Positions 11,717 to 36,958 of a stretch of 64,000 nucleotides of DNA are shown here, piece by piece. Source of the stretch: an uncultured Gemmatimonadales bacterium (GTDB lineage Bacteria; Gemmatimonadota; Gemmatimonadetes; Gemmatimonadales; GWC2-71-9); contig CAVYSW010000005.1 in NCBI GenBank assembly GCA_963771275.1, forward strand, positions 1 through 64,000. The letters run 5' to 3'. The notes beneath the pieces were generated by a model. That model did no database searches and had not been told where the DNA came from. It worked only from the letters and a program-made list of their open reading frames with translations. How positions within the stretch are numbered: position 1 is the first letter of the stretch; each line of letters begins with the position of its first letter. The position numbers and the translations under genes are program-made.

Positions 11717-12139
11717 CTAGGGTGCTACCTCCATCCCGAGTGCCCGGGCGTTGTCCCGGATCCGGTCATCGAGCGAGATCATCGTGACGCCGCCGAGCGC
11801 CTCGTGGAACAGGGCCGCGGTGCCGAGATGGAACGCGTCCAGCGTGCGGACCGGCTCGGACGGGAATCGGGCGGCGGCGCGCTCGAGCACCGGGCCCGTC
11901 AGTTCACGCGTCACCCACGATTGCCGGGCTACGTCGAGCAGCCGTAGGGCGACCAACTCGTCGGCGGGCGCCAGCCGGCGGGTTGCGACGCCGCGCGCCA
12001 CCGCCCGCGCACACTCCACGGCCGTGAGCGTCGAGGCGACGACGCGCTCCGCGCTCCGGAGCGCGTCCCGTACCGCGCGGCCATCCGGCTCGCCCAGGAG
12101 CCACGCCAGCACGGCGCTGCTCTCGGCGTAGGCGATCAA
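11717..12139 (-). CDS. vapC: PIN-domain toxin (VapC family)
   Basis: IAYAESSAVLAWLLGEP, VEC, RTLDAFHL and SLDDR; 4-nt overlap with the antitoxin gene. Confidence 0.88.
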   Translation of the reverse strand: MIAYAESSAVLAWLLGEPDGRAVRDALRSAERVVASTLTAVECARAVARGVATRRLAPADELVALRLLDVARQSWVTRELTGPVLERAAARFPSEPVRTLDAFHLGTAALFHEALGGVTMISLDDRIRDNARALGMEVAP

Positions 12140-12432
12140 CGCTCGGCCCGCTCCTCGGCGAGGAGCGTCCGGGCGGTTCCCTTGCGCGCCCGGACGGGCG
12201 AGACGCCGTAGGCGTCCCGATCGTGCGGCTCGCCGACCTTCAGACCGCCCCCTTCAGCCAGGCGTCGCAGGCCCCGGTCGATCCCGGTTTCCGTCGGCGG
12301 GGGGCCGCCCGGCGCGCGCAGCTCCGCCACGACCTCGTGGCGGTCGGTCACGAGGATCACCTCCCCGGCGCGCACCTCGCGCAGGTAGGCGCTCAGCCGC
12401 GCCTTGAGCTCCCGGACGCCAACGGCCTTCAT
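12136..12432 (-). CDS. Phd/YefM-family antitoxin
   Basis: MKAVGVRELKARLSAYLREVRAGEVILVTDRHEVVAEL is a classic Phd N-terminus. Confidence 0.92.
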   Translation of the reverse strand: MKAVGVRELKARLSAYLREVRAGEVILVTDRHEVVAELRAPGGPPPTETGIDRGLRRLAEGGGLKVGEPHDRDAYGVSPVRARKGTARTLLAEERAER

Positions 12433-12599: not shown

Positions 12600-13994
12600 C
12601 TACGGGACGCGCGCGCCCCGCTGGTCGCGGCCGTTCTGGTGCAGGATCAGTCCGTTCACCGTGCCATCGGCGCCGCGCGTGAAGCTGAGCTGTGCGTCCA
12701 CCACCCGGAGAAAGAACTCGTCGGGCGCGCTCGCCCAGATCCGGAACGCGGGCTGTCCGGTGGCCTGGAGCGTCAGGTGATCGCCCTCCCGCGTTACGGC
12801 GAGCACGAATGCCGGGGTGAGCGGGTACCGTCCCACGTACTCATCGAGGACAGCCGCCGGGAGGGCGACGGGGGTGCGCACGGCGTCGAGTGGGCGCGTC
12901 GGGTCGAGCAGGTGCAGGCCAATGTCATCGATGTTCTCGGTCGCGTTCGTGAGCACCACGACCCCCACGCGCCGCGCCGGGTCGTACCCCGCCCAGCTGT
13001 GGTAGCCACCCGTGCCGCCGTTATGCCACACGATCCGCGTGCCCGCGGCCCCCTGCCGCACGTGCCAGCCCAGGCCGATGCGCATCGCGCCGCCCGGGCC
13101 GGCGTCGAACTGCGGCTCGGCCGCCAGCCGGAACGCGGAGTCGAGCGGCGTGCGTCGGAGCCCCATCGCGGCGGCGAGAAATGCCGTCATGTCCGCGGCG
13201 GTGGAGCGAAGCGCGCCGGCCCCGGCCAGGGCATCCAGGTCCCAGTTGGCCGCCGGCCGGCCGTCGGCGGACCCCTGGGCGAGGCGCGCGCGCGCCAGGT
13301 CGGTGAGCGTGATCATCGTGCTCGTCATGCCCAGCGGGGCCAGGATGCGGCGGCGGACCAGCTCCTCGTAGCCCATGCCCGCGCGCCGCGCGAGCGCCAG
13401 GCCGAGCAGCCCGACGCCGACGTTCGAGTACTCGTAGGCCGCGCCGGGCGCGCGGGTCAACGTGTAGCCGTTCAGGAACGCGTACAGGCGGGCGGCGTCG
13501 TAGTCGGCGTAGGGATTGCTCGCATCGCGCGGCGCGAAGTTGGCCGGCATGCGCGGCAACCCCGAGCGCTGGACCGAGAGGAGGCGGAGCGTGATGGGTT
13601 GCGAGTCCGAGCCCGGCACGCGCACCGAGTCCGGGAGGTAGCGCTGCACCGGGTCGTCGAGGGCGACCTCGCCCTTCACCGCCATGTCGGCCAGGACCAC
13701 GGCGGTGAAGACCTTGGTGATCGAGCCGATCTCGTAGATGGTGCGCTGGTCGACGGGGGCGCCGCCCTCCACCGCCGCCCTGCCGTACGCGAAGTAGCGG
13801 GCGCCGGCCGAGTCCACCACGCCGATCACGATGCTGGGCGCCCAGCGGGCGTCGACCCGCGCGCGGACATTGGCCAGGACGTCGTCCGGGATCGCGGCCC
13901 GCTGCTGCGCGCCAAGGGTCGCGGTGCCCAGCGCGGTCGCGACCGCGATGGCCGCGGCCAGCCGAGACGGAAACCAGCGATCAGCCACGTGCAT
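12600..13994 (-). CDS. Beta-lactamase-family serine hydrolase with C-terminal DUF3471-like domain
   Basis: GSITK (SxxK), YEYSN and WHNGGTGG; C-terminal LDEYVGRY...; signal peptide. Start uncertain (13994 or 14009). Confidence 0.9.
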   Translation of the reverse strand: MHVADRWFPSRLAAAIAVATALGTATLGAQQRAAIPDDVLANVRARVDARWAPSIVIGVVDSAGARYFAYGRAAVEGGAPVDQRTIYEIGSITKVFTAVVLADMAVKGEVALDDPVQRYLPDSVRVPGSDSQPITLRLLSVQRSGLPRMPANFAPRDASNPYADYDAARLYAFLNGYTLTRAPGAAYEYSNVGVGLLGLALARRAGMGYEELVRRRILAPLGMTSTMITLTDLARARLAQGSADGRPAANWDLDALAGAGALRSTAADMTAFLAAAMGLRRTPLDSAFRLAAEPQFDAGPGGAMRIGLGWHVRQGAAGTRIVWHNGGTGGYHSWAGYDPARRVGVVVLTNATENIDDIGLHLLDPTRPLDAVRTPVALPAAVLDEYVGRYPLTPAFVLAVTREGDHLTLQATGQPAFRIWASAPDEFFLRVVDAQLSFTRGADGTVNGLILHQNGRDQRGARVP

Positions 13995-15208
13995 GCCCCA
14001 ATCTGGCACCCTCGATCGAGACCGGCGCGGCGATCACGCCCGACTCCCCGGGCAGACCGCGCCGGGTTGCCGCCTTGGCGGCATCCCCATCTTGGCGCCT
14101 ACCGCCCGCCCCCGCCCCCGTCAGCAGATACACCGCGAACGACGCCAGCCAGTGCTCTCCCAGGTAGTCGCCGCTCTCGACGTAGGGAAGGCTCGCCTCG
14201 GCGTGGCGGGCGGCCGAGGCGAGCAGCACCGGCCGGGCCGGATCACCCTCCGGCAGCGCCTCAGCGACGGCCCGCATGCACCACGCCCGGCTCAGAGTTG
14301 AGCCCGTCCAGATGCACCAGGCCGGGATCCCCGCGATCCGTCACGATCGCGGGCTCGAGGAGGTTGGCGGGGCGCCCCCGCCCGATGTCCGGCAGGAACG
14401 CGTGGAGCCAGCGCGCGAACGCGGGCGCCGGCAGCACCCGCCGCATCAGATCGGCCTCGACCAGCGAGCGCGAGAGGAAGTCGTCCCCATCCGGCTCCCA
14501 CGCGGCGGGCACGTCGACGTCGCTCTCGAAATAGGTCCGGCTCCGCTCCACCAGCAGCGAATCCAGGTCGGCACGACCCACCGCGCGCGCGTAGTCGAGC
14601 GCCAGCGCCATGCCGAACGCCGTGTTGGGATGCACGCCCCGCCGGATCGGGTACACCTGCTTGGGCAGGAACGCGAGATAGCGCGCGACGATCGCGTCGG
14701 CCAGCGGCTGAAGGTTGGCCGCCCACCGGCGCCCGTCGGGGTCGTCCCAGGCGTGCAGCTCCTCCGCCAGCTTGAGCAGCCAGGCCCAGCCGTACATCCG
14801 CTCGAACGACGCGCTGCCCGGCCGCCCGAGATACGCCGCCTCGGCCGCCAGATGGGCCGCGGACAGGTCGGCGTCCAGCGTGCGGCGGATCTCGGCCGCT
14901 TCCGGCAGGTCGGGAAACACCTCGAGCAGGCGCACCAGCATCCAGTGGCCGTGCACCGCCGAGTGCCAGTCGTAGCTCCCGTAGAAGCTGGGGTGGAGCG
15001 CCCGCGGCGCTTGCACGTCGGCGGGGCCGTTCATCACGTGCTCCAGCTTGTTGGGGTACTCGCGCGTGATGCCTTTGAGGCCGAGTTGGGCGAACCGCGA
15101 CGCGGCAGCGCGGTCCAATGCCGGAAGGGCCGGCGCCGCGGGCGGCCCGGCCCGGTCACAGCCGGCCAGCAGCAGCGCCAGGGCCAGGGCCCGAATGGGA
15201 ATGGTCAT
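13981..15208 (-). pseudogene. DUF2891-family lipoprotein interrupted by a 1-bp insertion (or an assembly error)
   Basis: Lipobox LLAGC, FYGSYDWHSAVHGHW and FERMYGWAW. The minus strand reads CAT CTG GAC GGG CTC AAC [T] CTG AGC CGG GCG TGG; deleting base 14296 restores HLDGLNLSRAWCMRAV...GDYLGEHWLASFAVY. Confidence 0.85.
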
Positions 15209-15379
15209 GAGGAGCCAAGCTACGCGGCGGACACCGCGCGTCCAGCGCGAGCGCCGTCGCGGCCGGGTGACGAAACGAACGAGCCGAACGGCTTTCGCCA
15301 TCCGGCTCGTCAGGCGCAGCGAAGACTGGCTGCGGACTCGCACTCGACACTGACACGATGGAGGGAACGGTGTGCCGAG

Positions 15380-17413
15380 TCAAGAACGCGGCGCCGCGTC
15401 TCGGGCGGCCTTTGTGATGAGGATAGGCGCCGGCTGCAGCGCGGCGGCGCGCGACGCGAGCGGCGGGAGCCCGGACCGCGCCTCCCACATCTGGTAGCGC
15501 GGATCCCGCCGGAGAAAGTCGAACGCCGGGTCCACCCGAATCTGGTGCAGGTAGCTGTCGCGACGCACCAGCATGGAGTCGAGCCAGCGCAGCGTCGCGA
15601 GCGTGTCGCCGAGCGTGGCGAATGCGGACGCGTAGTGCGAGGGCGGCACGCGCTCGCCGGCACGGCTGGCGCGGTCGAGCCGCGCGATCGTCCGCCGCGC
15701 GTCGGCGGCGAGCAGGCGGACGGCCGCGGCGTCCGTCGCGACGGTCGGCAGGGCGGCCACCCCTCCGGAGTCTCCCTCGGCCGCCCTCGCGCGACGCAGC
15801 CACTCCACGGCGTCGCGCGGACGGCCCAAGGCGCGGTAGAGCTCGGCGAAGTCCGCGTATCCCCGCCGCCATCCGGGATCGTCCTGCAGCATCTGCGCGA
15901 ACACCTGCCGGGATTCCTCGTAGCGCCGCGCGAAGTAGAGCTGCTTGGCCACCAGCCGGGCGAACAACAGACTCAGCGGATCGCGCCGATGCGCGCGCCG
16001 CGCCGCCGCGACCGCGCTGTCCATCTCGCCGTGGAAGCGGAACCACACCGACTGCATCCCCGCGACGTCCGGCTCCAGGGAATCGAGCATGCGGGCGCGA
16101 TCGATCCGCTCGCGTGCGCGCGACAGGTCGAGATGCACGAACATGTCCTCGGACGCCAGCGCGAGCCATGCACTGGCTGCCGTGCTGTCGAGCGCGAGCG
16201 CCCGTCGGGCCAGCGCGTCGATCTTCGGCCACGCCTCGTCCGGGTCGGTGAGATCATTGAGGGCCGTGAAGATGTAGGCCTGCGCCAGACCGTAGAGGCC
16301 GGGGACGTACAACGGCTCCCGGTCCACCAGCGAGGCGAACGTGTCGCGCGACGCCGGGAAGGCGAACTGGAACCGGAGCGTGAGGCCGCGGAGATACGAG
16401 CTGTACGCCCCCGTATCCGCCCGATACCACGCCGGCAGGCGCAGCACCGCGCGCTCGGCCTCGGCGGCCGGATCGTGCTCCGCTCCGGTCCGCGGGGGTG
16501 ACGCCGCGGCGGGACGGCGGGCGAGCAACGATCCGGCCCCGAGCGTCGCCACGGTCAGCAGTCCGGCGGCGATCACGCCGCGCAGGCGCCACCACGCCCC
16601 TCCCGTCGCCGCCATCGGCACGGGCGGCGTCAGCGGCGGCGGGAGCGTCGCCGGCGCCGCAGCCGGCGCCCAGGTCACCGCGGTCTGTCGGCCGGTCGCG
16701 GCGGCCGCCCGCAGCCCGTCCGCGAGCGCCCTGGTCTCGGCCGAGGGCTCCGCCTCGAGCTCGCGGGCGAACCAGTCGGCGAGGTCCTGATAGGCTTGGA
16801 GGGCGCCGCCCCGGTCGCCAGCGGCGGCCAGCACGCGCATGAGCCACCGGGCTCCCGCCTCGTTGCCGGGGTCGAGCCGAGCCGCCCGGCGGACCGCATC
16901 CACCTCGGCCTGGCCGGTCCCCTCGAGCTCGCGTGCCCGCTTCCACGCCGCCGCCCGTACCGCCCGCAGCAGCTCCACACGCTGGTCCTCCAGCCAGCGC
17001 TCGAAGTCCGGGGCGCCCGAGACATGGAAGCCGGGCGCCAGATCTCCGGTCCACAGCGCCACGGCCTCGTCCAGCCGACCGGCCGCGAGGTGCGCGCGCA
17101 ACGCGAGCGCATCGCAGCGGACCGCGCCGACGTCGAGACCGACGTAGGCCTCGCCCCGCGTCACGATCGCCTCGCCGCCCAGGGCCTGACGGAGCGCATG
17201 GAGTGCGTTCCTCAGCGAATGCCGGGATGAGCCGTCGGCCGCTTCGGGCCACAGCAGCGCCAGGAGGCGGTCCCGGGCGTGGAGGCCGGCCGGCTCGGCC
17301 AGGGCCAGATAGAGCAGCAGGGCGAGCCGTTTGGGCTGGGTGAGCACGGCTTGCGTGCCGTCCAGATGGCTCGCGCGGACGTCGATGGCGCCGAGCAACT
17401 GCAGATCGATCAT
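15380..17413 (-). CDS. Membrane-anchored SARP/BTAD transcriptional activator with C-terminal TPR domain
   Basis: N-terminal LQLLG...RDRLLALLWPE...SLRNALHALR wHTH, BTAD (F..WLE, DPGNE, LEAEPSAET), TM VIAAGLLTVATLGAGSLLA, then TPRs. Confidence 0.9.
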   Translation of the reverse strand: MIDLQLLGAIDVRASHLDGTQAVLTQPKRLALLLYLALAEPAGLHARDRLLALLWPEAADGSSRHSLRNALHALRQALGGEAIVTRGEAYVGLDVGAVRCDALALRAHLAAGRLDEAVALWTGDLAPGFHVSGAPDFERWLEDQRVELLRAVRAAAWKRARELEGTGQAEVDAVRRAARLDPGNEAGARWLMRVLAAAGDRGGALQAYQDLADWFARELEAEPSAETRALADGLRAAAATGRQTAVTWAPAAAPATLPPPLTPPVPMAATGGAWWRLRGVIAAGLLTVATLGAGSLLARRPAAASPPRTGAEHDPAAEAERAVLRLPAWYRADTGAYSSYLRGLTLRFQFAFPASRDTFASLVDREPLYVPGLYGLAQAYIFTALNDLTDPDEAWPKIDALARRALALDSTAASAWLALASEDMFVHLDLSRARERIDRARMLDSLEPDVAGMQSVWFRFHGEMDSAVAAARRAHRRDPLSLLFARLVAKQLYFARRYEESRQVFAQMLQDDPGWRRGYADFAELYRALGRPRDAVEWLRRARAAEGDSGGVAALPTVATDAAAVRLLAADARRTIARLDRASRAGERVPPSHYASAFATLGDTLATLRWLDSMLVRRDSYLHQIRVDPAFDFLRRDPRYQMWEARSGLPPLASRAAALQPAPILITKAARDAAPRS

Positions 17414-17418
17414 GGGCC

Positions 17419-17469
17419 CACGCTGGGGGACGCCTGGGTGACGGCTCGGGGACACCTAAAACCTAGCAT
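17419..17469 (+). promoter_or_regulatory. Putative SARP-dependent promoter: direct repeats at 11-bp pitch plus -10 box
   Basis: GACGCC 17429, GACGGC 17440 and GACACC 17451 (plus CACGCT 17419); ccTAGCAT at 17464-17469. Confidence 0.6.
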
Positions 17470-17514
17470 TCCCATCCCGATTCCACACTCCCCACTTTCA
17501 GGAGGCATGCACAC

Positions 17515-18978
17515 ATGTCCACCACCTTCGCGCGTCCCTCGGCCCTGGCGGTCTGCCTCGGGGGCGCGCTCCTGGCTTCCTGCACGTCCGACGGGCCGAC
17601 CGCCATGGGCGACGGAAGCCCCGGGCTGTCGCGCACGCGGGGCGCTGGCACGGTCGCGGTCTGCCACCTCCCGGCGGGCGGTCGAATCCTGGAGGTCGCG
17701 ACACCCGCCCTCGCCGGTCACCTGTCGCATGGCGACTACATCGCCAGGCTGTTCGTGAGCCACGCGGCCGGTCAGCCGTCCGACGGCGCGCACTTCGGAA
17801 GCATCGGGGATGCGCTCGCCGCGGCCCGCACCGGCCGGCTGGCCCGGGGCGAGCTGCTCTCCGCCGCCTGCCGCATCACCATCATCGTCTCGGCCGATGT
17901 GTATCAAGGGACCGCCGGCCCGCCATCCGACGGTCTCGAGCGGTTCCCCCTGATCGTGGACGTGCCGGACATCACCCTACGCGGCGCGCTGGAGATGGGG
18001 CTCGACGGCGCCGGACGCGCGACCGGTGCCGGGACGGGGGAGGGTGAAACAACGCTGACCCCGGCCGAGCCGCTTCCCGTCATTGCCGGCGCTTCGACGC
18101 CCATCATCGTCGCGAATGCACACCCCGGCGGCTCCGCTGGGAACGGTCTCACGGTGGAAGGCTTCGTCTTTCAGTCGGGGCACGACCCGGCCGTTGACGC
18201 CGGGGGCCAGGGGGTCTTAAGCGTGCGGGCCGCGGGGCTCACCATCCGGGGGAACCGGTTCGAAGGTGGGTTCACGGAATCGGTGGACCTTCGCGCGAGC
18301 AGCGGTGGCGTCGTGCGGAACCACCTCGCGGGCACCGCCGGGACGTGTGACATCTGTCTGGCAGGGCCGGGGCGCTACCGGGCCACCGGCAACCGGCTGC
18401 TCGCCGGCGGGATCCCGGGGATCGTGGTCTCATCGCCGGTGGGCCTCGCGGTCCCCAGCGGCGTCGAGCCGCTCGAGCTCCCCGCCACGGCCGAAACGTG
18501 GGGGTATATCCGGAACAATGAGGTACGCGATCACCAGCGCACGCCGGTGGGCACCGGCATCCGGTTGGACGCGGTCGGCGTCGGCGCACCCAACGTGCAT
18601 GGCACGATCCACGCCGTCGTCCGCGACAACGCGTTGGTGAACAACCGATTCGGGATGATCGTGCACGCGGCCTTTCCGGTGGCCAACAGCGATCGCAAGG
18701 GCGACGTGGACCTGAGGCTCGGTGGGAACGTGTTCCACCAGAGCTGCCAGACGGACCTCCTGGTGTCGCTGTCCAGGCACACGACCGCCCTCGGACTGAG
18801 CAACAGCCCCTACTTGCTCAACTCGACGTTCACGCTGGCGCTCGGTGGGGACGTGAGCTGGGACCAGGTGTGGTTCAGCCATCCGGCCGGGTTCGGGAAC
18901 ACGCTCGTGGTGGACGGGCAGACGATCGCGAACGGGAGCCGGCAGTTCTACGATGCGGCGGGGTGCCCGGGGCTCTGA
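17515..18978 (+). CDS. Lipoprotein with probable right-handed beta-helix repeats
   Basis: GGAGG RBS, lipobox LLASC, VAVCH...HLSHGD motif, and repeated I.GN.F / RNN / DNALVNN beta-helix rungs. Confidence 0.8.
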   Translation: MSTTFARPSALAVCLGGALLASCTSDGPTAMGDGSPGLSRTRGAGTVAVCHLPAGGRILEVATPALAGHLSHGDYIARLFVSHAAGQPSDGAHFGSIGDALAAARTGRLARGELLSAACRITIIVSADVYQGTAGPPSDGLERFPLIVDVPDITLRGALEMGLDGAGRATGAGTGEGETTLTPAEPLPVIAGASTPIIVANAHPGGSAGNGLTVEGFVFQSGHDPAVDAGGQGVLSVRAAGLTIRGNRFEGGFTESVDLRASSGGVVRNHLAGTAGTCDICLAGPGRYRATGNRLLAGGIPGIVVSSPVGLAVPSGVEPLELPATAETWGYIRNNEVRDHQRTPVGTGIRLDAVGVGAPNVHGTIHAVVRDNALVNNRFGMIVHAAFPVANSDRKGDVDLRLGGNVFHQSCQTDLLVSLSRHTTALGLSNSPYLLNSTFTLALGGDVSWDQVWFSHPAGFGNTLVVDGQTIANGSRQFYDAAGCPGL

Positions 18979-19118
18979 CCCGAGGGCTGAGTTGCTGTGC
19001 CACGCGGCCGGTCGAGTGCGGACTCCTCGACCGGCGGCGCTTCCGCTCCATGCTTGGCTTGGCCTCGCAGGCCATTCACGGCGAGAGGACGAGCCCGCCG
19101 CGACCCTGATAGCGCGCT

Positions 19119-21731
19119 TCACATCCCGGGATTGGCGTACTTGACCAGCAGCGCCTGGAATCGCGCATCGCTCCGGATCGGGTCCCACAGCGGGTCGAGG
19201 CGGAGGGTGTGAGCGCTGACGCGTGACTGCCCGGCCAGAAGCCGCTCGATCGCCGCCAGCGCGGAATCGGTCTCGCCCAGGTGCACCAGGATCAGTGCTC
19301 GCGCCTCCGGCTCGGACGGGCAGCTGTGGTTGTTGCGGTACCCGTCCGACTGCTCCAGCCAGCGCGCCTCGCGCATCGCCGCCGCCCGGCGCCCGAGCGT
19401 CGCCATGATCATGCCACGCGTCATGTGCAGGCGCGCATCGCCGGGGCGTACCCGCAGCGCCGAGTCCAGCTGGGTAGCGGCCGAATCGAAGGCGGCGCGA
19501 CCCGCCGCGGTGTCGCCCGTCAGGTGGTAGGCCGACCCGGCGAGGACCAGACGCGAGGTGAAGCTCTCCCCGCTGGTCCACACATCACCGTGGAGCGTAC
19601 GGAGCAGCGCGAGCGCCGAGTCCGGGTGTCGGTCCCGCATCAGCATGTCCACCTGCTCCAGCCCGACCCGCGGGGCCCCACCGCCCGGCTCGACGTCCGG
19701 CAGCCCGCCGAGGGCGGCCCGGAGCGTGTCGACCTGGCCCTGCCACAGGACGTAGCTCCAGGCCAGGGCGATGTGCGGCTGGATGTAGTCCGGCGCGAGC
19801 ACCAACGCGCGGCGGTATGTCTCGATGGCCTCCGCATAGCGCCGGCGGCAATGGAGCCGGTTGCCTTGGGCCTGGAACAGATCCACGTTGCGGGGGTCGA
19901 GCTGCCTGGCGCGCTCGAACGCCAGGTCCGCGCCGTCCCAGTTCCCGCGCCGAGCCTCAACCACCGCGATGGCCGCCCACAGGGAGGCGTCGTTCGGCGC
20001 GTGGCGCGACGCCGCGGTGAGCTCCTTCAGCTCCCGCTGGTCGCCGTAGCGGCCGCAACAATACGCCAAGGCCATGGCGACATGCGCCTCGGGCAGGTTC
20101 GGCGCGAATCGCAGCGCGGCGTGGGCCTCTCGCAGCTGCAGGTCCGCCCGCGCCGGGGACGCGTCGTACCGGCGCGAGAACAGCCGGGCGTGCACAATCG
20201 AGAGCGCCGCGTGGGCAAGGGCAAAGGTCGAGTCGCGCTCGAGCGCGCGCTCGTACAGGCGCTGCGCGACCGCAAGGTCCTGGGGCAGGTCGCCTGCCCG
20301 CCGGGCGTACTCGCGCCCCTGGAGGTACAGGAGATACGCCTCGGCGTCGGCGGTGGGCGCCGCCGTGATGCCGCCCGCCTCCGCGCGCGAGAGCGTCACT
20401 CCGACCGCGCTCACGATCTGCCGCGCGATGTCGCTCTGCACCGCGAACGCGTCGTCCAGGGGCCGGTCGTAGGTCTCCGCCCAGAGACCCGCCTCGGTGA
20501 CGGGGTCGATGAGCTGCACGATCACCCGCAGCCGGTTCCCGACCACCTGAACACTGCCCTGGACGATGCTGCCGACCGCCAGCTCCTCGGCGATCTGGGC
20601 CGCTGGCGTTGACGTCCGCTGGTAACCGCTGACCGACGCGGGGCCGATGACCCGGAGCGCAGCCACCTGCGCGAGCTGCGCGAGCAGCTCGTCGTGGAGG
20701 CCGACGGCAAAGTAGGCATGCGACGTGTCGGTGGTGAGGTTGTGGAACGGCAGCACGGCGATGGCGGTGCGGGGAGGGCGGACCTCGGCTCCGCGGGTCC
20801 TCGGCCACAGCGCCGTCTGGATCGCCGCCACGACCACCACCACCGCCGCGATCCCCGCCACGCGCTTGAGCCAGCGCGGGACGCGCGCGGGCACCCGCAG
20901 CGCCGCGGCGGGCATCCGACCGGCGGCGGGCGGAGCGAGCGGGTGGCGATCAGGGCGGGCCGGCTCCACGGGCTTGGACCCGGCGGCCACCTCCCCAGCG
21001 GCGAGGCGGGACGCGGGTAGCTCTCCCCTGCGAATCCGCCCGATCGTGGCGGGCACCGAGGGGTCAGGCTCGAGGCCGGACTCCTCGCGGAGACGGTGGA
21101 CGTGAAGCTCCCCAACTTGAATGGCGTTGGCGCGATCGCCGATTGCCGACATCGCCTCCATCTGGCGGAGCACGAAATGCGAGTTCAGCGGATCGTGCTC
21201 CACGGCGCGTCCCCACCAGCGCGCCGCCTCAACCCAGGCCCCCGTGCCTTCCGCGGACGCGGCGAGCGCTTGGAGCGCATCGACGCATTCGCGTTCCAGT
21301 CGGGCGCGCTCGCCGGCCAGCCAATGCTCGAACTCCGGCGCGCCGTCCAGGTGGAACCCCTCGAGCAGCGGACCGCCATACGCCCGCACGGCGTCCGCGA
21401 GTCTGCCGGAAGCCACCGCCTGGGCGAATTCCAACACGTCCGACCCGACCACGGAGGCGTCGAGACGGAGCAAACTGGTGACGGATTGCAGCGATGCCGG
21501 CGTGAGCGCCTGGCGGATGGCGTGGAGGGCATCCCGGAGGCCCTGCCGGGCGTGGGCCTCGTCGCTCTCCGGCCAGAGCAGGGCCAGAAGGCGCTCGCGG
21601 GTGCAGCCGAGGTCGCCGCATACGGCGAGCACGGCGAGGACCGCCCTGGCCCGGCGGTGGGGCGGGGGCGGTAGCGGAGCCCCACCGGACCCCTCCAGCG
21701 CGAAGCCTCCGAGCACACGGAGGTGGAACAT
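19119..21731 (-). CDS. Membrane-anchored SARP/BTAD activator with TolB-N and TPR domains
   Basis: MFHLRVLGG, RERLLALLWPESD, BTAD, TM VAGIAAVVVVVAAIQTALW, AIAVLPF TolB-N, TPRs, LRLDPLWDPIRSDARFQAL tail. Confidence 0.92.
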   Translation of the reverse strand: MFHLRVLGGFALEGSGGAPLPPPPHRRARAVLAVLAVCGDLGCTRERLLALLWPESDEAHARQGLRDALHAIRQALTPASLQSVTSLLRLDASVVGSDVLEFAQAVASGRLADAVRAYGGPLLEGFHLDGAPEFEHWLAGERARLERECVDALQALAASAEGTGAWVEAARWWGRAVEHDPLNSHFVLRQMEAMSAIGDRANAIQVGELHVHRLREESGLEPDPSVPATIGRIRRGELPASRLAAGEVAAGSKPVEPARPDRHPLAPPAAGRMPAAALRVPARVPRWLKRVAGIAAVVVVVAAIQTALWPRTRGAEVRPPRTAIAVLPFHNLTTDTSHAYFAVGLHDELLAQLAQVAALRVIGPASVSGYQRTSTPAAQIAEELAVGSIVQGSVQVVGNRLRVIVQLIDPVTEAGLWAETYDRPLDDAFAVQSDIARQIVSAVGVTLSRAEAGGITAAPTADAEAYLLYLQGREYARRAGDLPQDLAVAQRLYERALERDSTFALAHAALSIVHARLFSRRYDASPARADLQLREAHAALRFAPNLPEAHVAMALAYCCGRYGDQRELKELTAASRHAPNDASLWAAIAVVEARRGNWDGADLAFERARQLDPRNVDLFQAQGNRLHCRRRYAEAIETYRRALVLAPDYIQPHIALAWSYVLWQGQVDTLRAALGGLPDVEPGGGAPRVGLEQVDMLMRDRHPDSALALLRTLHGDVWTSGESFTSRLVLAGSAYHLTGDTAAGRAAFDSAATQLDSALRVRPGDARLHMTRGMIMATLGRRAAAMREARWLEQSDGYRNNHSCPSEPEARALILVHLGETDSALAAIERLLAGQSRVSAHTLRLDPLWDPIRSDARFQALLVKYANPGM

Positions 21732-21858
21732 CGTGGCTGCAGCCGTGATTCCCCACCGCCTTTGTCGCAATTCTGCGATGCTGCGTTATCCTGGCCCCCC
21801 GCCGCTCGGAAGGCAAGAGGCGCGCCACGCCCCCCGTAGCCGTCTTGCAGGCCGCGGC

Positions 21859-21910
21859 CACAGCCAGGCAACGGCGTCACGACGCCCGCCCAACGCCTCG
21901 TTCCTATCGT
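21859..21910 (+). promoter_or_regulatory. Putative SARP-dependent promoter: four repeats at exact 11-bp pitch plus -10 box
   Basis: CACAGC 21859, AACGGC 21870, GACGCC 21881 and AACGCC 21892; ccTATCGT at 21905-21910. Confidence 0.6.
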
Positions 21911-21995
21911 TCCGCGCTCGGAGACCAGCCAAGCACCGGGGTCCCCGGCATCCGGCCGGACCCCGGGCGGGTTATCTCGACTCACGGAGGCGGCA

Positions 21996-22523
21996 ATGAG
22001 AAGGTGCATAGGTGCGATGCGAGTCGTGGGTGGGGTCATGCTGACCGCCATGCTCGCCTGTGAGCAGCCACCGACAGCCACGGACGACGCCGCTGCGGGC
22101 GCGGTCATGCTCGGCCGGTACAATGACAACGGTGCCAGTCTCTGGCTGCCCGATGGCTCCCTGCCTTGCGCCGTGGTCGATGGCACCGGCGCCTTCGTGC
22201 CTGTGCCGTGCACGATGCAGGTCGCGACACCCGCGTCGCACTCGAACGCGATGGTGGTGGTCCGGGCATCGGGCGTCCCCAACCCGACCGGCAAGACCGT
22301 TCACTGGGGCCCGGAGAATCCAGGGTACATGTGGGCCGGGCTCTTCGCTGCGACGTTCGGGCTCACCGCGCCCCCATACCCCTGCGGGGTCAAGGTGGGG
22401 CCTGGCTCCACGTACTTCGTGGATATCCTCTTCACCCTGGATTGGCACGCGACCGTGACACCGAGTGGAGAGGCCACCGTGACGTGTCATTACAGCACCA
22501 AGTCGGCGTGGCTCCCGTCGTAG
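21996..22523 (+). CDS. Hypothetical lipoprotein (beta-rich, several Cys)
   Basis: GGAGG RBS and lipobox MLAC; divergent from the SARP gene. Confidence 0.75.
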   Translation: MRRCIGAMRVVGGVMLTAMLACEQPPTATDDAAAGAVMLGRYNDNGASLWLPDGSLPCAVVDGTGAFVPVPCTMQVATPASHSNAMVVVRASGVPNPTGKTVHWGPENPGYMWAGLFAATFGLTAPPYPCGVKVGPGSTYFVDILFTLDWHATVTPSGEATVTCHYSTKSAWLPS

Positions 22524-22926
22524 GGTAGCCGGCCGGCGACGTCGTGCGGGCGCAGCGGCCTCCGGCAGAGGCCGCTGCGCCCGCCGCGCCACTGGCTGGA
22601 CCGCTCCCCGCGGACGACGACCCGATGCTCGTGTCGCGAGGATAGCCGGAGCACGCAACCGTCGCTACCCTGAAATCTGAGCGTGTATCGCTCATTTTTC
22701 ATCCACGCCGACGCTGCTCGACCGCCCCGCCTGCTTGGCGATCTCCCCCAGGGCCCTGATACCCGAGCGGCTCCCTCCCATTGTCATGCTCTCCGCTTCT
22801 TACCCAAGAGCGCGCTGCGCTGCATGTTGGGGTCACGGAACGGGGGTGCTGCTCGGGGCCGTCCGCGCGACGGACGCCGCGCGTGGCCTCTGTCGCGTCT
22901 CGAACTCATCGACTTGAGGAGGTCGT

Positions 22927-23673
22927 ATGAAACAGCCTCGCGTCGTGATCCTGTGCGCCGTCTTGGTGGTCGGGGCCGTTGCCTGGAGTGCGTGCGGCGA
23001 GAACGAGCCGGTACCGGTGGCGTCGGTGGAAGTCACGCCGCTGGCGGACACGGTGCGGGCTGGCGCGACGATTCAGCTCACGGCGACGCTGAAGGACATG
23101 GACGACAACCCGCTGACCGGACGCACGATCACCTGGGCGAGCGACGACGAGGCGGTTGCGACGGTGGGCAGCGGCACGGGTCTCGTGACGGGCGAGGGCA
23201 GCGGGGCCGCGACGATTACCGCGACGAGCGAGGGTCAGACCGGCACGGCGGACGTCACCGTCTGGGTGGGCGTCACCGGGAGCTGGTCGGGTACCCTGGA
23301 CGTCCCCGGCGGCCCGTGTCAGCTGGACCTGGCAATCACCGAAGCTGGGACCGGTACCATCACCGGGACCAGCCAACTGTTCGCACCCTGTCTTGCCTCA
23401 GCCTTCACTGTCACGGGAACGAACCACACCGGCGGAGTGACGGACAGTGTCGTCATGGCGTTCGCCGCAGGTGGTCCGGCGTTCGAGTTTAGAGGGATGT
23501 TCGACGGCGACGCCACATTGACTGGTGTGGTGGACGCCGGGACCCCCTACCCCGCGACCATCACGCGCCAGAGCTTCTCGCCGGCTCCCCCAGCCCAGGC
23601 TGCGGCACGGGCCGATATCCGCTCGCGGACGGTGACACATCCGTGGCCGCCGCGCACGCCGAGCAGGCGGTAG
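22927..23673 (+). CDS. Ig-like (Big_2) domain lipoprotein
   Basis: GAGGAGG RBS, WSAC lipobox, VASVEVTP...ITWASDDEAVATV...GLVTG...ATITATSEG. Confidence 0.85.
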   Translation: MKQPRVVILCAVLVVGAVAWSACGENEPVPVASVEVTPLADTVRAGATIQLTATLKDMDDNPLTGRTITWASDDEAVATVGSGTGLVTGEGSGAATITATSEGQTGTADVTVWVGVTGSWSGTLDVPGGPCQLDLAITEAGTGTITGTSQLFAPCLASAFTVTGTNHTGGVTDSVVMAFAAGGPAFEFRGMFDGDATLTGVVDAGTPYPATITRQSFSPAPPAQAAARADIRSRTVTHPWPPRTPSRR

Positions 23674-23842
23674 GTCGGCAGAACCGCTGACGACCGTTGC
23701 GGAGAAGGTAGCTGCGGCTGCCCTCGGCGCATCTCCCGCCCGGCCGCACGCCGGGCGGTGCTGTACAGACCCGCCCCGACCTTCGTCCTTGCGTCCACCG
23801 GCCCCGGCGCCGACTCTTGCTCAAGCGAAGAAGGGAGGCCCG

Positions 23843-24835
23843 CTGCCGTACCAACCATCGCCGCGCCGTTACGACGTGATGCCCTACAACCGCTGCGGGA
23901 AGAGCGGGCTCAAGCTGCCGGCCATCTCGCTCGGGCTGTGGCACAACTTCGGTGGGGTGGATGACTACGCGACCGCACGCGCCATGGCCCACCGCGCGTT
24001 CGATCTGGGCATCACCCACTTCGATCTGGCGAACAACTACGGCCCCCCCTACGGATCCGCCGAGCAGACGTTCGGCCGCATCCTCAAGGAGGGCCTGAGG
24101 ATCTATCGCGACGAGCTGATCATCTCGTCCAAGGCGGGATGGGACATGTGGCCGGGGCCGTACGGCGACTGGGGCTCGCGCAAGTATCTGCTTGCCTCGC
24201 TCGACCAGAGCCTCAGCCGCTTGGGGCTCGAGTACGTGGACATCTTCTATCACCACCGCCCCGATCCCGACACCCCGCTCGAGGAGACGATGGGGGCGCT
24301 CGCCGCCGCCGTGCGCCAGGGCAAGGCGCTCTACGTGGGGATCTCGGCCTACTCGCCTGAGCTAACGCGCCGGGCGGCCGCGGTGCTGCGGGACCTTGGG
24401 ACGCCGTGCCTGATCCACCAGCCGCGCTACAGCATGTTCGACCGGTCCGTGGAGCGCGGCTTGCTCGACGTCCTCGACGAGGAAGGCATCGGCTGCGTCG
24501 TGTTCTCACCGCTCGCGCAAGGGCTGCTCACCGGCCGGTATCTCGACGGCGTCCCGGACGATTCGCGCGCGGCCAAGCCGCATGGCTACCTCAAGCGCGG
24601 CGCCGTGACGGACGGCGTGGTCGCGCGCGCGCGGGCGCTCGACGCAATCGCGCGGGCGCGCGGCCAGTCGCTGGCGCAGATGGCGCTGGCGTGGGTGCTG
24701 CGCCACAAGACGGTCACGTCGGCCCTGGTGGGCGCGAGCCGAGTGTCGCAGCTCGAGGACTGTGTCGCGGCGCTCGCCAATCTGCGGTTTGCCGACGGCG
24801 AGCTCGCCGCGATCGACGCGATCCTGAGCGGGTGA
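23843..24835 (+). CDS. mgrA: Aldo/keto reductase, L-glyceraldehyde-3-phosphate reductase (YghZ/MgrA-like)
   Basis: SLGLWHNFG, HFDLANNYGPPYGSAE, SSKAGWDMWPGPYGDWGSRKY and FSPLAQGLL. Start uncertain (CTG 23843 after GGAGG, or ATG 23879). Confidence 0.9.
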   Translation: MPYQPSPRRYDVMPYNRCGKSGLKLPAISLGLWHNFGGVDDYATARAMAHRAFDLGITHFDLANNYGPPYGSAEQTFGRILKEGLRIYRDELIISSKAGWDMWPGPYGDWGSRKYLLASLDQSLSRLGLEYVDIFYHHRPDPDTPLEETMGALAAAVRQGKALYVGISAYSPELTRRAAAVLRDLGTPCLIHQPRYSMFDRSVERGLLDVLDEEGIGCVVFSPLAQGLLTGRYLDGVPDDSRAAKPHGYLKRGAVTDGVVARARALDAIARARGQSLAQMALAWVLRHKTVTSALVGASRVSQLEDCVAALANLRFADGELAAIDAILSG

Positions 24836-36563: not shown

Positions 36564-36727
36564 CGGTTGCCATTGCTCCCGGCAGACCCCGGCAACGGCG
36601 ACGCTGAAGTCCGGCATCCGACGCTCGGAAGGTCCCTGAGAGAGCGGCACCATGTCGGTCGATCGATGTCCCCTGAGTCGAAAGGGGCTGAGTTCGACCG
36701 CCGATGCGTTGCCAAGCCTCCGACCTC

Positions 36728-36958
36728 GACCGCGACGATGCCCTTTTCGGGCCGATCCTCGCCGAGGACCGAGCGCGAATCCTCGCGGGGATCGGGGATG
36801 CGGATGCGGCACTCGATGGGATCGAGCGGCTGCTGGCCGGACCGTCCTACGTCAGCGTCCACCCGCTGCGCCTCGACCCGCGTTGGGACCTGATCCGCAA
36901 CGACCCGCGGTTCCAGGCGCTGCTGGTGAAGTACGCGGAGCCGCAACCGGTGCGCTGA
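36728..36958 (+). pseudogene. Orphan C-terminal fragment of a TPR sensor protein (paralogous to the 19119-21731 tail)
   Basis: AALDGIERLLAGPSYVSVHPLRLDPRWDLIRNDPRFQALLVKYA versus ALAAIERLLAGQSRVSAHTLRLDPLWDPIRSDARFQALLVKYA. Confidence 0.8.

Follow-up and report, generated by a model that had tools for sequence, protein, structure and literature searches.

Introduction

Activation by regulators of the SARP family has so far been understood from soluble actinobacterial proteins. The rule for their sites is that direct repeats stand at a pitch of 11 or 22 bp over the -35 position, with the last repeat 8 bp from the -10 element (PMC10936776); in AfsR the repeat occupies positions -29 to -19 and has the consensus CGTT(T/C)ATCGNN (PMC10936776, PMC10972967). 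AfsR is cytoplasmic and carries NOD and TPR domains, EmbR carries an FHA domain, and a 2024 review considers SARPs exclusive to actinobacteria and, in its available text, never mentions membranes (PMC10972967). Here we analyze a stretch of 64,000 nucleotides ("the window") that forms the start of contig C5 in the genome of an uncultured Gemmatimonadales bacterium (assembly GCA_963771275.1, labeled G000; 3.86 Mb, 70% GC). The window contains two genes for predicted membrane-bound SARPs, SARP1 and SARP2, each of them divergent from the gene of a predicted lipoprotein (Lipo1 and Lipo2, respectively).

The locus also resembles systems outside the SARP family. SARP1 and SARP2 share with regulators of the ToxR/CadC type an N-terminal winged helix, one predicted membrane helix and a C-terminal domain predicted to lie outside, all in a single polypeptide; they differ from that type in having a BTAD domain after the winged helix and a SARP-type promoter geometry. 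As in VtrA/VtrC and ToxR/ToxS, the gene of a membrane-tethered regulator lies beside the gene of a fast-changing exported protein. In those systems, however, the genes overlap within a single operon and the products pair obligately as a heterodimer, the partner being lipocalin-like (PMC9214523); the genes described here are divergent, the partner is a likely target, and its fold varies.

The interpretation that we favor, with a probability of about 0.68, is that a membrane SARP would bind the repeats and activate the divergent lipoprotein gene when its periplasmic TPR domain senses an envelope signal. Its first part, SARP binding and activation of the partner gene, is highly probable from the sequence analysis. 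Provided that this part is correct, periplasmic sensing by the TPR domain is a probable switch.

Two divergent gene pairs with repeats at an 11-bp pitch

An earlier note on this DNA had described two adjacent copies of the same layout, and the observation is confirmed: each copy has a regulator with BTAD and TPR regions and a lipobox-bearing partner, and the coordinates are correct (Table 1). SARP1 and Lipo1 are 101 bp apart, and SARP2 and Lipo2 are separated by 264 bp. Repeats at a pitch of 11 bp are present in both intergenic regions, with AC dinucleotides at 17430, 17441 and 17452 in array 1 and at 21860, 21871, 21882 and 21893 in array 2 (the positions in the note were those of the base before each AC). 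At both sites the last AC lies 12 bp ahead of the start of the predicted -10 box, a spacing that had also been noticed; the "cc" reported in front of the TA of the box is not general. The claim that a -35 consensus is missing holds as well: at spacers of 16-19 the best match was 2/6 at both Lipo promoters. A consensus promoter scan of positions 15000-24000 detected no sigma-70 site.

SARP2 has a predicted promoter of its own, which is located 112 bp from the Lipo2 -10 box and directed away from array 2. Promoters of the same type, TTG(C/T)NN-17-CAGGAT, are found at seven other loci (L051, L173, L174, L175, L176, L186 and L198). For SARP1, a candidate extended -10, TGC-TAGGTT, was read by eye on the opposite strand, where it overlaps TAGCAT; no good -35 was found for this gene.

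A strict three-repeat pattern has two matches in the 3.86-Mb genome, both of them the window sites, and a two-repeat pattern has 32. This count was rejected as evidence because it is circular, the pattern having been derived from the same two sites.

Table 1. Features of the two gene pairs and of related sites. Positions refer to the window unless a contig of G000 is given
Feature	Position	Strand	Description
SARP1 gene	15380..17413	-	677 amino acids (aa); winged helix + BTAD aa 1-244, TPR solenoid aa 315-646
SARP1 predicted transmembrane helix	16520..16576	-	codons of aa 280-298, within linker; hydropathy 1.97
Array 1	17427..17455	+	7-bp units GGGACGC, GTGACGG, GGGACAC; pitch 11 bp
Lipo1 predicted -10	17464..17469	+	TAGCAT, 8 bp past last array 1 unit
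Lipo1	17515..18978	+	487 aa; lipobox Cys23; predicted lipoprotein, right-handed parallel beta-helix (pectin-lyase-like fold)
SARP2 gene	19119..21731	-	870 aa; winged helix + BTAD aa 1-236
SARP2 C-terminal part	aa 323-865		'TolB-like' domain + TPR solenoid
SARP2 predicted transmembrane helix	20805..20861	-	codons of aa 291-309; hydropathy 2.28
SARP2 own predicted promoter	21788..21816	-	sigma-70 type; TTGCCT, 17 bp, CAGGAT
Array 2	21857..21896	+	units GCCACAG (weak), GCAACGG, ACGACGC, CCAACGC; pitch 11 bp
Lipo2 predicted -10	21905..21910	+	TATCGT, 8 bp past last array 2 unit
Lipo2	21996..22523	+	175 aa; lipobox Cys22; predicted lipoprotein
Third predicted lipoprotein	22927..23673	+	Big_2 Ig-like domain; downstream of Lipo2
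Arrays without nearby SARP	G000 C3:584007, C5:143973, C9:105862, C10:519124, C3:298756
Further peptide-gene sites	C3:983690-983872; C10:168523-168666		L167; L168

A repeat model trained on relatives recognizes the window sites

The SARP N-domain is present in 29 of 30 related genomes. Matches in other genomes numbered 105, of which 100 were retrieved (one did not reappear in a repeat search), and named genomes contributed a further 33 loci; four loci were dropped as duplicates and three as fragments. When the 68 divergent regions of loci other than those in the window were examined, recurrence of 4-mers was highest at lag 11 (18.7 per 1000) and lag 22 (12.8 per 1000), compared with 5.3-7.4 per 1000 at the 16 other lags tested. 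These peaks indicate that the phased repeats are not a product of chance.

The exact two-repeat pattern proved too strict in relatives (5/68) and was replaced by a weight-matrix model. The model was trained by expectation-maximization (EM) on the same 68 regions, with the loci of the window excluded, and yielded nTGACG(g/c) three times at a pitch of 11, with the AC 12 bp before the TA. Log-likelihoods were 161-221 in the five runs that settled on this spacing and 42-57 at six other offsets; with regard to pitch, the value was 215 at 11 versus 55-69 at 9, 10, 12 and 13. On the regulator strand, EM found a plain TTGCC -35 instead of an array.

A model score of at least 8.5 was considered an array. 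The held-out sites of the window scored 14.5 (array 1) and 12.6 (array 2), and ranked first and eighth among 2089 upstream regions of the own genome, which were delimited with our own gene calls and comprised 824 divergent and 1265 tandem regions. The background at this threshold was 17/824 divergent regions (2%) and 13/1265 tandem regions. In the training sample, the partner strand reached the threshold in 33/68 regions, the reversed sequence in 5/68, and shuffled sequences in a mean of 0.15. Among 80 held-out metagenome loci, 24 SARP loci included the N-domain together with 300 bp of upstream DNA, and an array was found in 16 of these 24. As the earlier note had anticipated, the phased motif is therefore commoner beside SARP genes than in the background (16/24 versus 17/824).

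SARP1 and SARP2 combine a SARP domain with a predicted membrane segment

By domain content and promoter geometry, both regulators belong, as judged from sequence, to the SARP family. BTAD was matched in Pfam at residues 106-234 of SARP1 (E 5.5e-13) and 104-233 of SARP2 (E 4e-14), and TPR matches were found C-terminal to it in both proteins. Neither protein matched Pfam Trans_reg_C. The N-domain profile nevertheless extends over the winged helix in both AfsR and EmbR: when the family profile A1, built from 73 N-domains, was compared with solved structures, AfsR (8hvr, E 7e-19) and EmbR (2fez, E 1e-18) were matched over positions 2-239, and the entries above them were designed TPR proteins only, aligned to the TPR-like part. 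The N-domain of SARP2, used as a single sequence against solved structures, gave no match; the profile search succeeded. Winged helix and BTAD are thus shared over the full domain with AfsR (8HVR/8K60/8JKE) and EmbR (2FEZ). Unlike AfsR and EmbR, SARP1 and SARP2 have a predicted membrane helix between the SARP and TPR domains and no ATPase.

The phosphate-binding residues R87 and R94 of AfsR align with R66 and the invariant R73 of SARP2, and the recognition-helix arginines R68 and R75 are invariant across the SARP1 family. Positions aligned with the base-contacting residues of AfsR, T88 and R92, are variable in the family. An AlphaFold model of SARP1 (mean predicted local distance difference test score, pLDDT, 88) contains the winged helix, the BTAD helices in the expected helix and strand order, and a helical solenoid at residues 315-646.

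Transmembrane helices were predicted from hydropathy and uncharged runs only. An uncharged run of at least 17 residues was detected in the linker of 81/88 SARP1 homologues and 77/102 SARP2 homologues, these being the proteins with the anchor motif and sufficient length among the 120 listed per family. No such run was found in the N- or C-domains of the same homologues. The sequence of the linker is poorly conserved, yet the membrane-length uncharged run is kept. Spanning of the membrane by this segment, which the earlier note had proposed, is consequently well predicted.

The 'TolB-like'-TPR module of SARP2 is not exclusive to SARPs. A Ser/Thr kinase of the own genome (C2:8772-11432) carries a helix followed by a module that is 53% identical to that of SARP2, as close as those of SARP2's own homologues. 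This observation indicates that the sensor module is common to different output domains. An Atlas search with the SARP2 C-domain yielded generic TPR clusters only.

The array follows the regulator while the partner changes

In 66 scored regions the variant of the repeat unit tracks the regulator clade. CGAC is found with the SARP2 clade, which has D as helix residue, and GGGAC/GTGAC with the SARP1 clade; TTGAC occurs with C3-type ATPases, and TTCAC with another ATPase clade. The two operators of the window differ in their first bases along the same lines (GG/GT-GAC in array 1, CG/CA-AC in array 2). The one shared operator of the earlier note is thus better described as a family of clade-specific variants. 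Helix residue D coincides with C at -26 in 22/26 units, and Q with T in 54/66 units; a residue-to-base code is suggested.

The SARP2 clade contains 15 rows and has a support of 100 in the SH-like approximate likelihood ratio test (SH-aLRT) on a quick tree. At least eight groups can be distinguished among its partners, with no blastp match beyond the signal peptide. Together with the distribution of unit variants, this diversity indicates that the cargo varies behind a site that remains tied to its regulator. It also argues against a fixed complex between sensor and lipoprotein. That the partner lipoprotein might bind the TPR domain as part of the sensor, in the manner of VtrC and VtrA and at least in the case of SARP1 and Lipo1, is nonetheless worth considering: both products are predicted to be periplasmic, and SARP1 and Lipo1 are kept together in L065 (75%, 74% and 68% identity) and, with a divergent SARP, in 7/20 usable Lipo1 loci. 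We regard this co-component or feedback role as unlikely. SARP2 relatives with C-domains that are 55% identical adjoin unrelated lipoproteins, the kinase mentioned above carries the SARP2 module, half of the Lipo1 loci are found away from SARP-like genes (see below), and the divergent arrangement differs from the overlapping one-operon genes of VtrA/VtrC (PMC9214523).

Lipo1 is present in 22/401 genomes of the phylum sample, the own genome included, and 20 loci were usable; one of the 22 genomes is unpublished, and no conclusion depends on it. Patterns at these loci can be summarized as follows:

(i). In 7/20 loci, a divergent SARP is found 82-136 bp away, and all seven have an array (scores 9.0-17.1).

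(ii). In 2/20 loci, a divergent SARP lies about 1.2 kb away, and no array adjoins Lipo1; in one further locus a SARP-like gene is located upstream in tandem, and an array is present.

(iii). In 10/20 loci, the upstream 1.5 kb contain no SARP-like gene; an array is still present in 5/10. The statement that each sensor activates "its own" lipoprotein is therefore not supported as it stood; nor is the "surface" location that the note gave to it.

Two observations indicate which gene the array serves. The promoter of SARP2 points away from array 2, and tandem loci without a divergent gene (the C3 SARP, L101, L122 and L126) carry the array before the lipoprotein gene. Hence, the array is likely to serve the partner.

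The survey of neighbors included 120 loci; five records whose phylum was different or unnamed were excluded. Transmembrane SARPs accounted for 44 loci, 34 of them with a divergent gene, and among these 17 had a lipobox and 14 an array. The corresponding figures were 18 divergent genes, five lipoboxes and eight arrays in 52 loci of SARP-ATPases; four, two and four in five loci of SARP-kinases; and ten, two and six in 19 loci of SARPs without a helix. Here the array belongs to the SARP family in general and is not specific to the transmembrane form: 8/18 divergent SARP-ATPase loci and 4/4 SARP-kinase loci carry it. It also precedes genes that do not encode lipoproteins.

With the same simple detector, a lipobox was found in 58/824 divergent genes of the own genome. 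The enrichment of lipoprotein neighbors is thus large, 50% beside transmembrane SARPs versus 7%, with the caveat that kin are not independent and that the detector misses some lipoproteins. The divergent lipoprotein partner of the earlier note stands as an enriched feature; half of the 34 divergent partners lack a lipobox by the detector used. Among metagenome loci at least 50% identical to the SARP2 N-domain, 11/14 have a lipobox partner. The relatives with these SARPs belong to Gemmatimonadales and other Gemmatimonadota.

Observations that weigh against SARP-driven activation and envelope sensing

Several findings speak against the interpretation that we favor, and some of them concern binding. 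The EM seed and the -10 matrix were chosen manually, once the window sites had been inspected. Only 14 of the 34 divergent regions of transmembrane SARPs reach 8.5. A quick tree leaves only 5 and 3 independent pairs for the link between helix residue and base, and a sign test is not significant; the covariation was rejected as independent evidence since it is confounded with kinship. Arrays scoring 9.7-13.8, mostly TTGACG/TTGACA or TTAAC, are also found before genes without a nearby SARP (Table 1), where a distant SARP or an OmpR-type regulator is the candidate binder; scores of 11-13.5 before genes of this kind count against the model's specificity for SARP neighbors.

The latter class deserves attention because OmpR/PhoB-type regulators use the same 11-bp pitch. 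Five OmpR-type regulators are encoded in the own genome, with model scores of 8.1-8.9 near two of their genes, and PhoP shares the AfsR site in Streptomyces (PMC10972967). The repeats might be read by regulators of this kind, or might only repress the SARP gene, and the neighborhood would then be a by-product of a mobile cassette. The -10 of the SARP gene overlaps that of the partner at many loci (offset +6 in 14/60), and a regulator transcript would in such cases cross the array. Both alternatives are very improbable in our view: arrays are far commoner beside SARP genes than elsewhere, the variant tracks the SARP clade while the partner changes, and the array cannot lie in the SARP leader at SARP2 and at the tandem loci.

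Other findings concern the membrane segment and the sensor. In the AlphaFold model of SARP1, the linker 245-308, including the membrane segment, has pLDDT below 50. In the SARP2 family, lysine and arginine residues are equally frequent before and after the helix (3.4 and 3.4), while the SARP1 family shows a positive-inside pattern (3.8 before the helix versus 2.2 after it); orientation of the helix is therefore less well predicted than spanning. Six kinases of the own genome that have the motif carry the 'TolB-like'-TPR module too, and a hydrophobic segment is present in three of them but absent from the other three; this implies that the module also works in the cytoplasm.

A role of the helix as a mere tether would accommodate these data. 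In that case the switch would be cytoplasmic, either phosphorylation by one of the numerous Ser/Thr kinases, as in AfsR and EmbR, or proteolytic release, and the TPR domain would be a scaffold or would lie in the cytoplasm. The module occurs without a membrane segment on SARPs of the class without a helix as well as on kinases, AfsR is under kinase control (PMC10972967), and the long Pro/Ala-rich linker before the helix would be a poor mechanical coupler. One would not expect, however, a segment of membrane length in most homologues, nor the charge bias of the SARP1 family, nor targets enriched for exported proteins. A Gemmatirosa protein of the same domain order, J421_2152, has in addition one helix at 305-327 according to TMHMM (PMC10269533 supplement). 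A tether of this kind seems to us improbable, and sensing by a periplasmic TPR domain is preferred.

Partner lipoproteins, isolated arrays and remnants

The predicted model of Lipo1 is a beta-helix, not a barrel, and its profile has no relative by sequence among solved structures. Lipo2 matched nothing in Pfam or NCBIfam, and an Atlas search gave leads below 0.8 only. A homologue of Lipo2, 72% identical, is found in L051 (3120-3632). It is the second gene in line, behind a different lipoprotein gene, and faces a SARP2 homologue. The intervening gene indicates that more than one cargo gene can be placed behind the promoter.

The Big_2 lipoprotein gene downstream of Lipo2 has no array of its own (score 1.5), and a terminator-like site is found at 22678-22694, in the gap between both genes. 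Possibly it is co-transcribed with Lipo2, or else it is a separate unit.

Loci with other regulator classes were also detected in the own genome. At C3:1000336-1003519 (L165), a cytoplasmic SARP-ATPase gene is followed directly downstream by TTGACG twice, before the gene of a 404-residue lipoprotein; L101, L122, L126 and L151 have kept this pair. At C9:153790-157650 (L166), a SARP-ATPase gene is divergent from a run of genes for 52-residue peptides with an ELEERIAP-like motif at their end; GAF-domain and export-like genes come next. Of the five peptide genes seen, four have a TTCACG array in front, and two of these lie at a distance from the regulator (further sites in Table 1). The peptides have no NCBIfam match, and their genes are a candidate regulon driven in trans.

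Remnants of SARP genes were found at several places. At C3:655041-656395 (L163), a SARP2-like C-terminus (62% identity) precedes a lipoprotein gene, the upstream DNA of which has a doubled CCGACG array (score 14.0); the site is possibly a decayed module or a distant target of SARP2. A C-terminal remnant 68% identical to SARP2 is located at 36704-36958 of the window, and an N-domain remnant in two frames lies behind a lipoprotein gene at C3:679921-680326. Other genes of the window include a DUF2891 lipoprotein gene, apparently in two overlapping frames (13981-15208, minus strand; the Pfam match ends at 268 of 325), and a small gene pair that, judged by eye, resembles an antitoxin and a PIN-domain toxin (11717-12432, minus strand).

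Proposed mechanism and implications

A conserved A at -24 is found both in the repeat model and in the AfsR box, if the -10 is assumed to start at -12. This indicates textbook SARP geometry rather than a new type of operator. Pitch of the repeats, 8-bp spacing to the -10 and location of the target, often beside its regulator, are also those of AfsR and the SARP family; the host, a member of the Gemmatimonadota, and the targets, envelope proteins instead of biosynthetic clusters, are not those of typical SARPs. SARP1 and SARP2 are likely to work as one-component receptors of the ToxR/CadC type with an AfsR-type output, and the interpretation given in the earlier note is partly supported.

By analogy with AfsR, the repeats would accommodate two or three adjacent SARP domains at the -35 position; contacts of these domains with sigma region 4 and core polymerase would compensate for the weakness of the promoter on its own. 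If the DNA-binding end is cytoplasmic, the spanning helix would place the TPR domain outside the inner membrane, where clustering driven by a ligand might supply the cooperativity that a monomeric SARP domain is without. TPR solenoids usually bind extended peptides. Given this preference and the polysaccharide-binding fold of Lipo1, the ligand would most likely be a polypeptide or an envelope polymer; the partner lipoprotein would not be the ligand in general. Paralogues may be kept mostly on their own promoters by the first bases of each unit, which the variable side of the recognition helix would read; genes elsewhere that carry the same unit variant may be activated in trans. An ordinary promoter of its own would drive the regulator gene, and in layouts like that of SARP1, where this promoter fires through the array, binding would also damp expression of the regulator.

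A broader and more tentative speculation, which we consider less likely to be right than wrong, is that the whole phylum possesses plug-in receptors in which a periplasmic TPR sensor module is swapped between SARPs and kinases, a simple helix-to-base code gives each SARP paralogue its own repeat variant, and lipoprotein cargo is interchangeable. If so, one protein would match a variable set of envelope proteins to a polypeptide or polysaccharide signal from outside.

The earlier note knew of no description of such a system. Regulators of this architecture class had been listed before: the supplement of a survey of transmembrane regulators includes 213 BTAD members (0.42%), one of them from Gemmatirosa, while the available main text mentions neither BTAD, SARP, TPR nor lipoprotein and gives no targets or sites (PMC10269533). 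A description of the circuit, a membrane SARP with lipoprotein targets, was not found in a literature search that covered mostly freely readable papers, without bioRxiv supplements.

SARP promoter geometry appears to persist in a distant soil phylum that is abundant and has hardly been cultured, where it is attached to a predicted membrane sensor and points at envelope genes. The repeat model provides testable triples of regulator, site and target for an uncharacterized family; it also offers an initial map of regulons in a phylum where hardly any transcription-factor sites are known. Tests are feasible because a cultured Gemmatirosa strain has the listed member J421_2152. It is also worth asking how a protein tethered to the membrane would contact RNA polymerase in the manner of AfsR. 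Many Gemmatimonadota share the layout, and the circuit would be a little-studied way of switching on envelope proteins.

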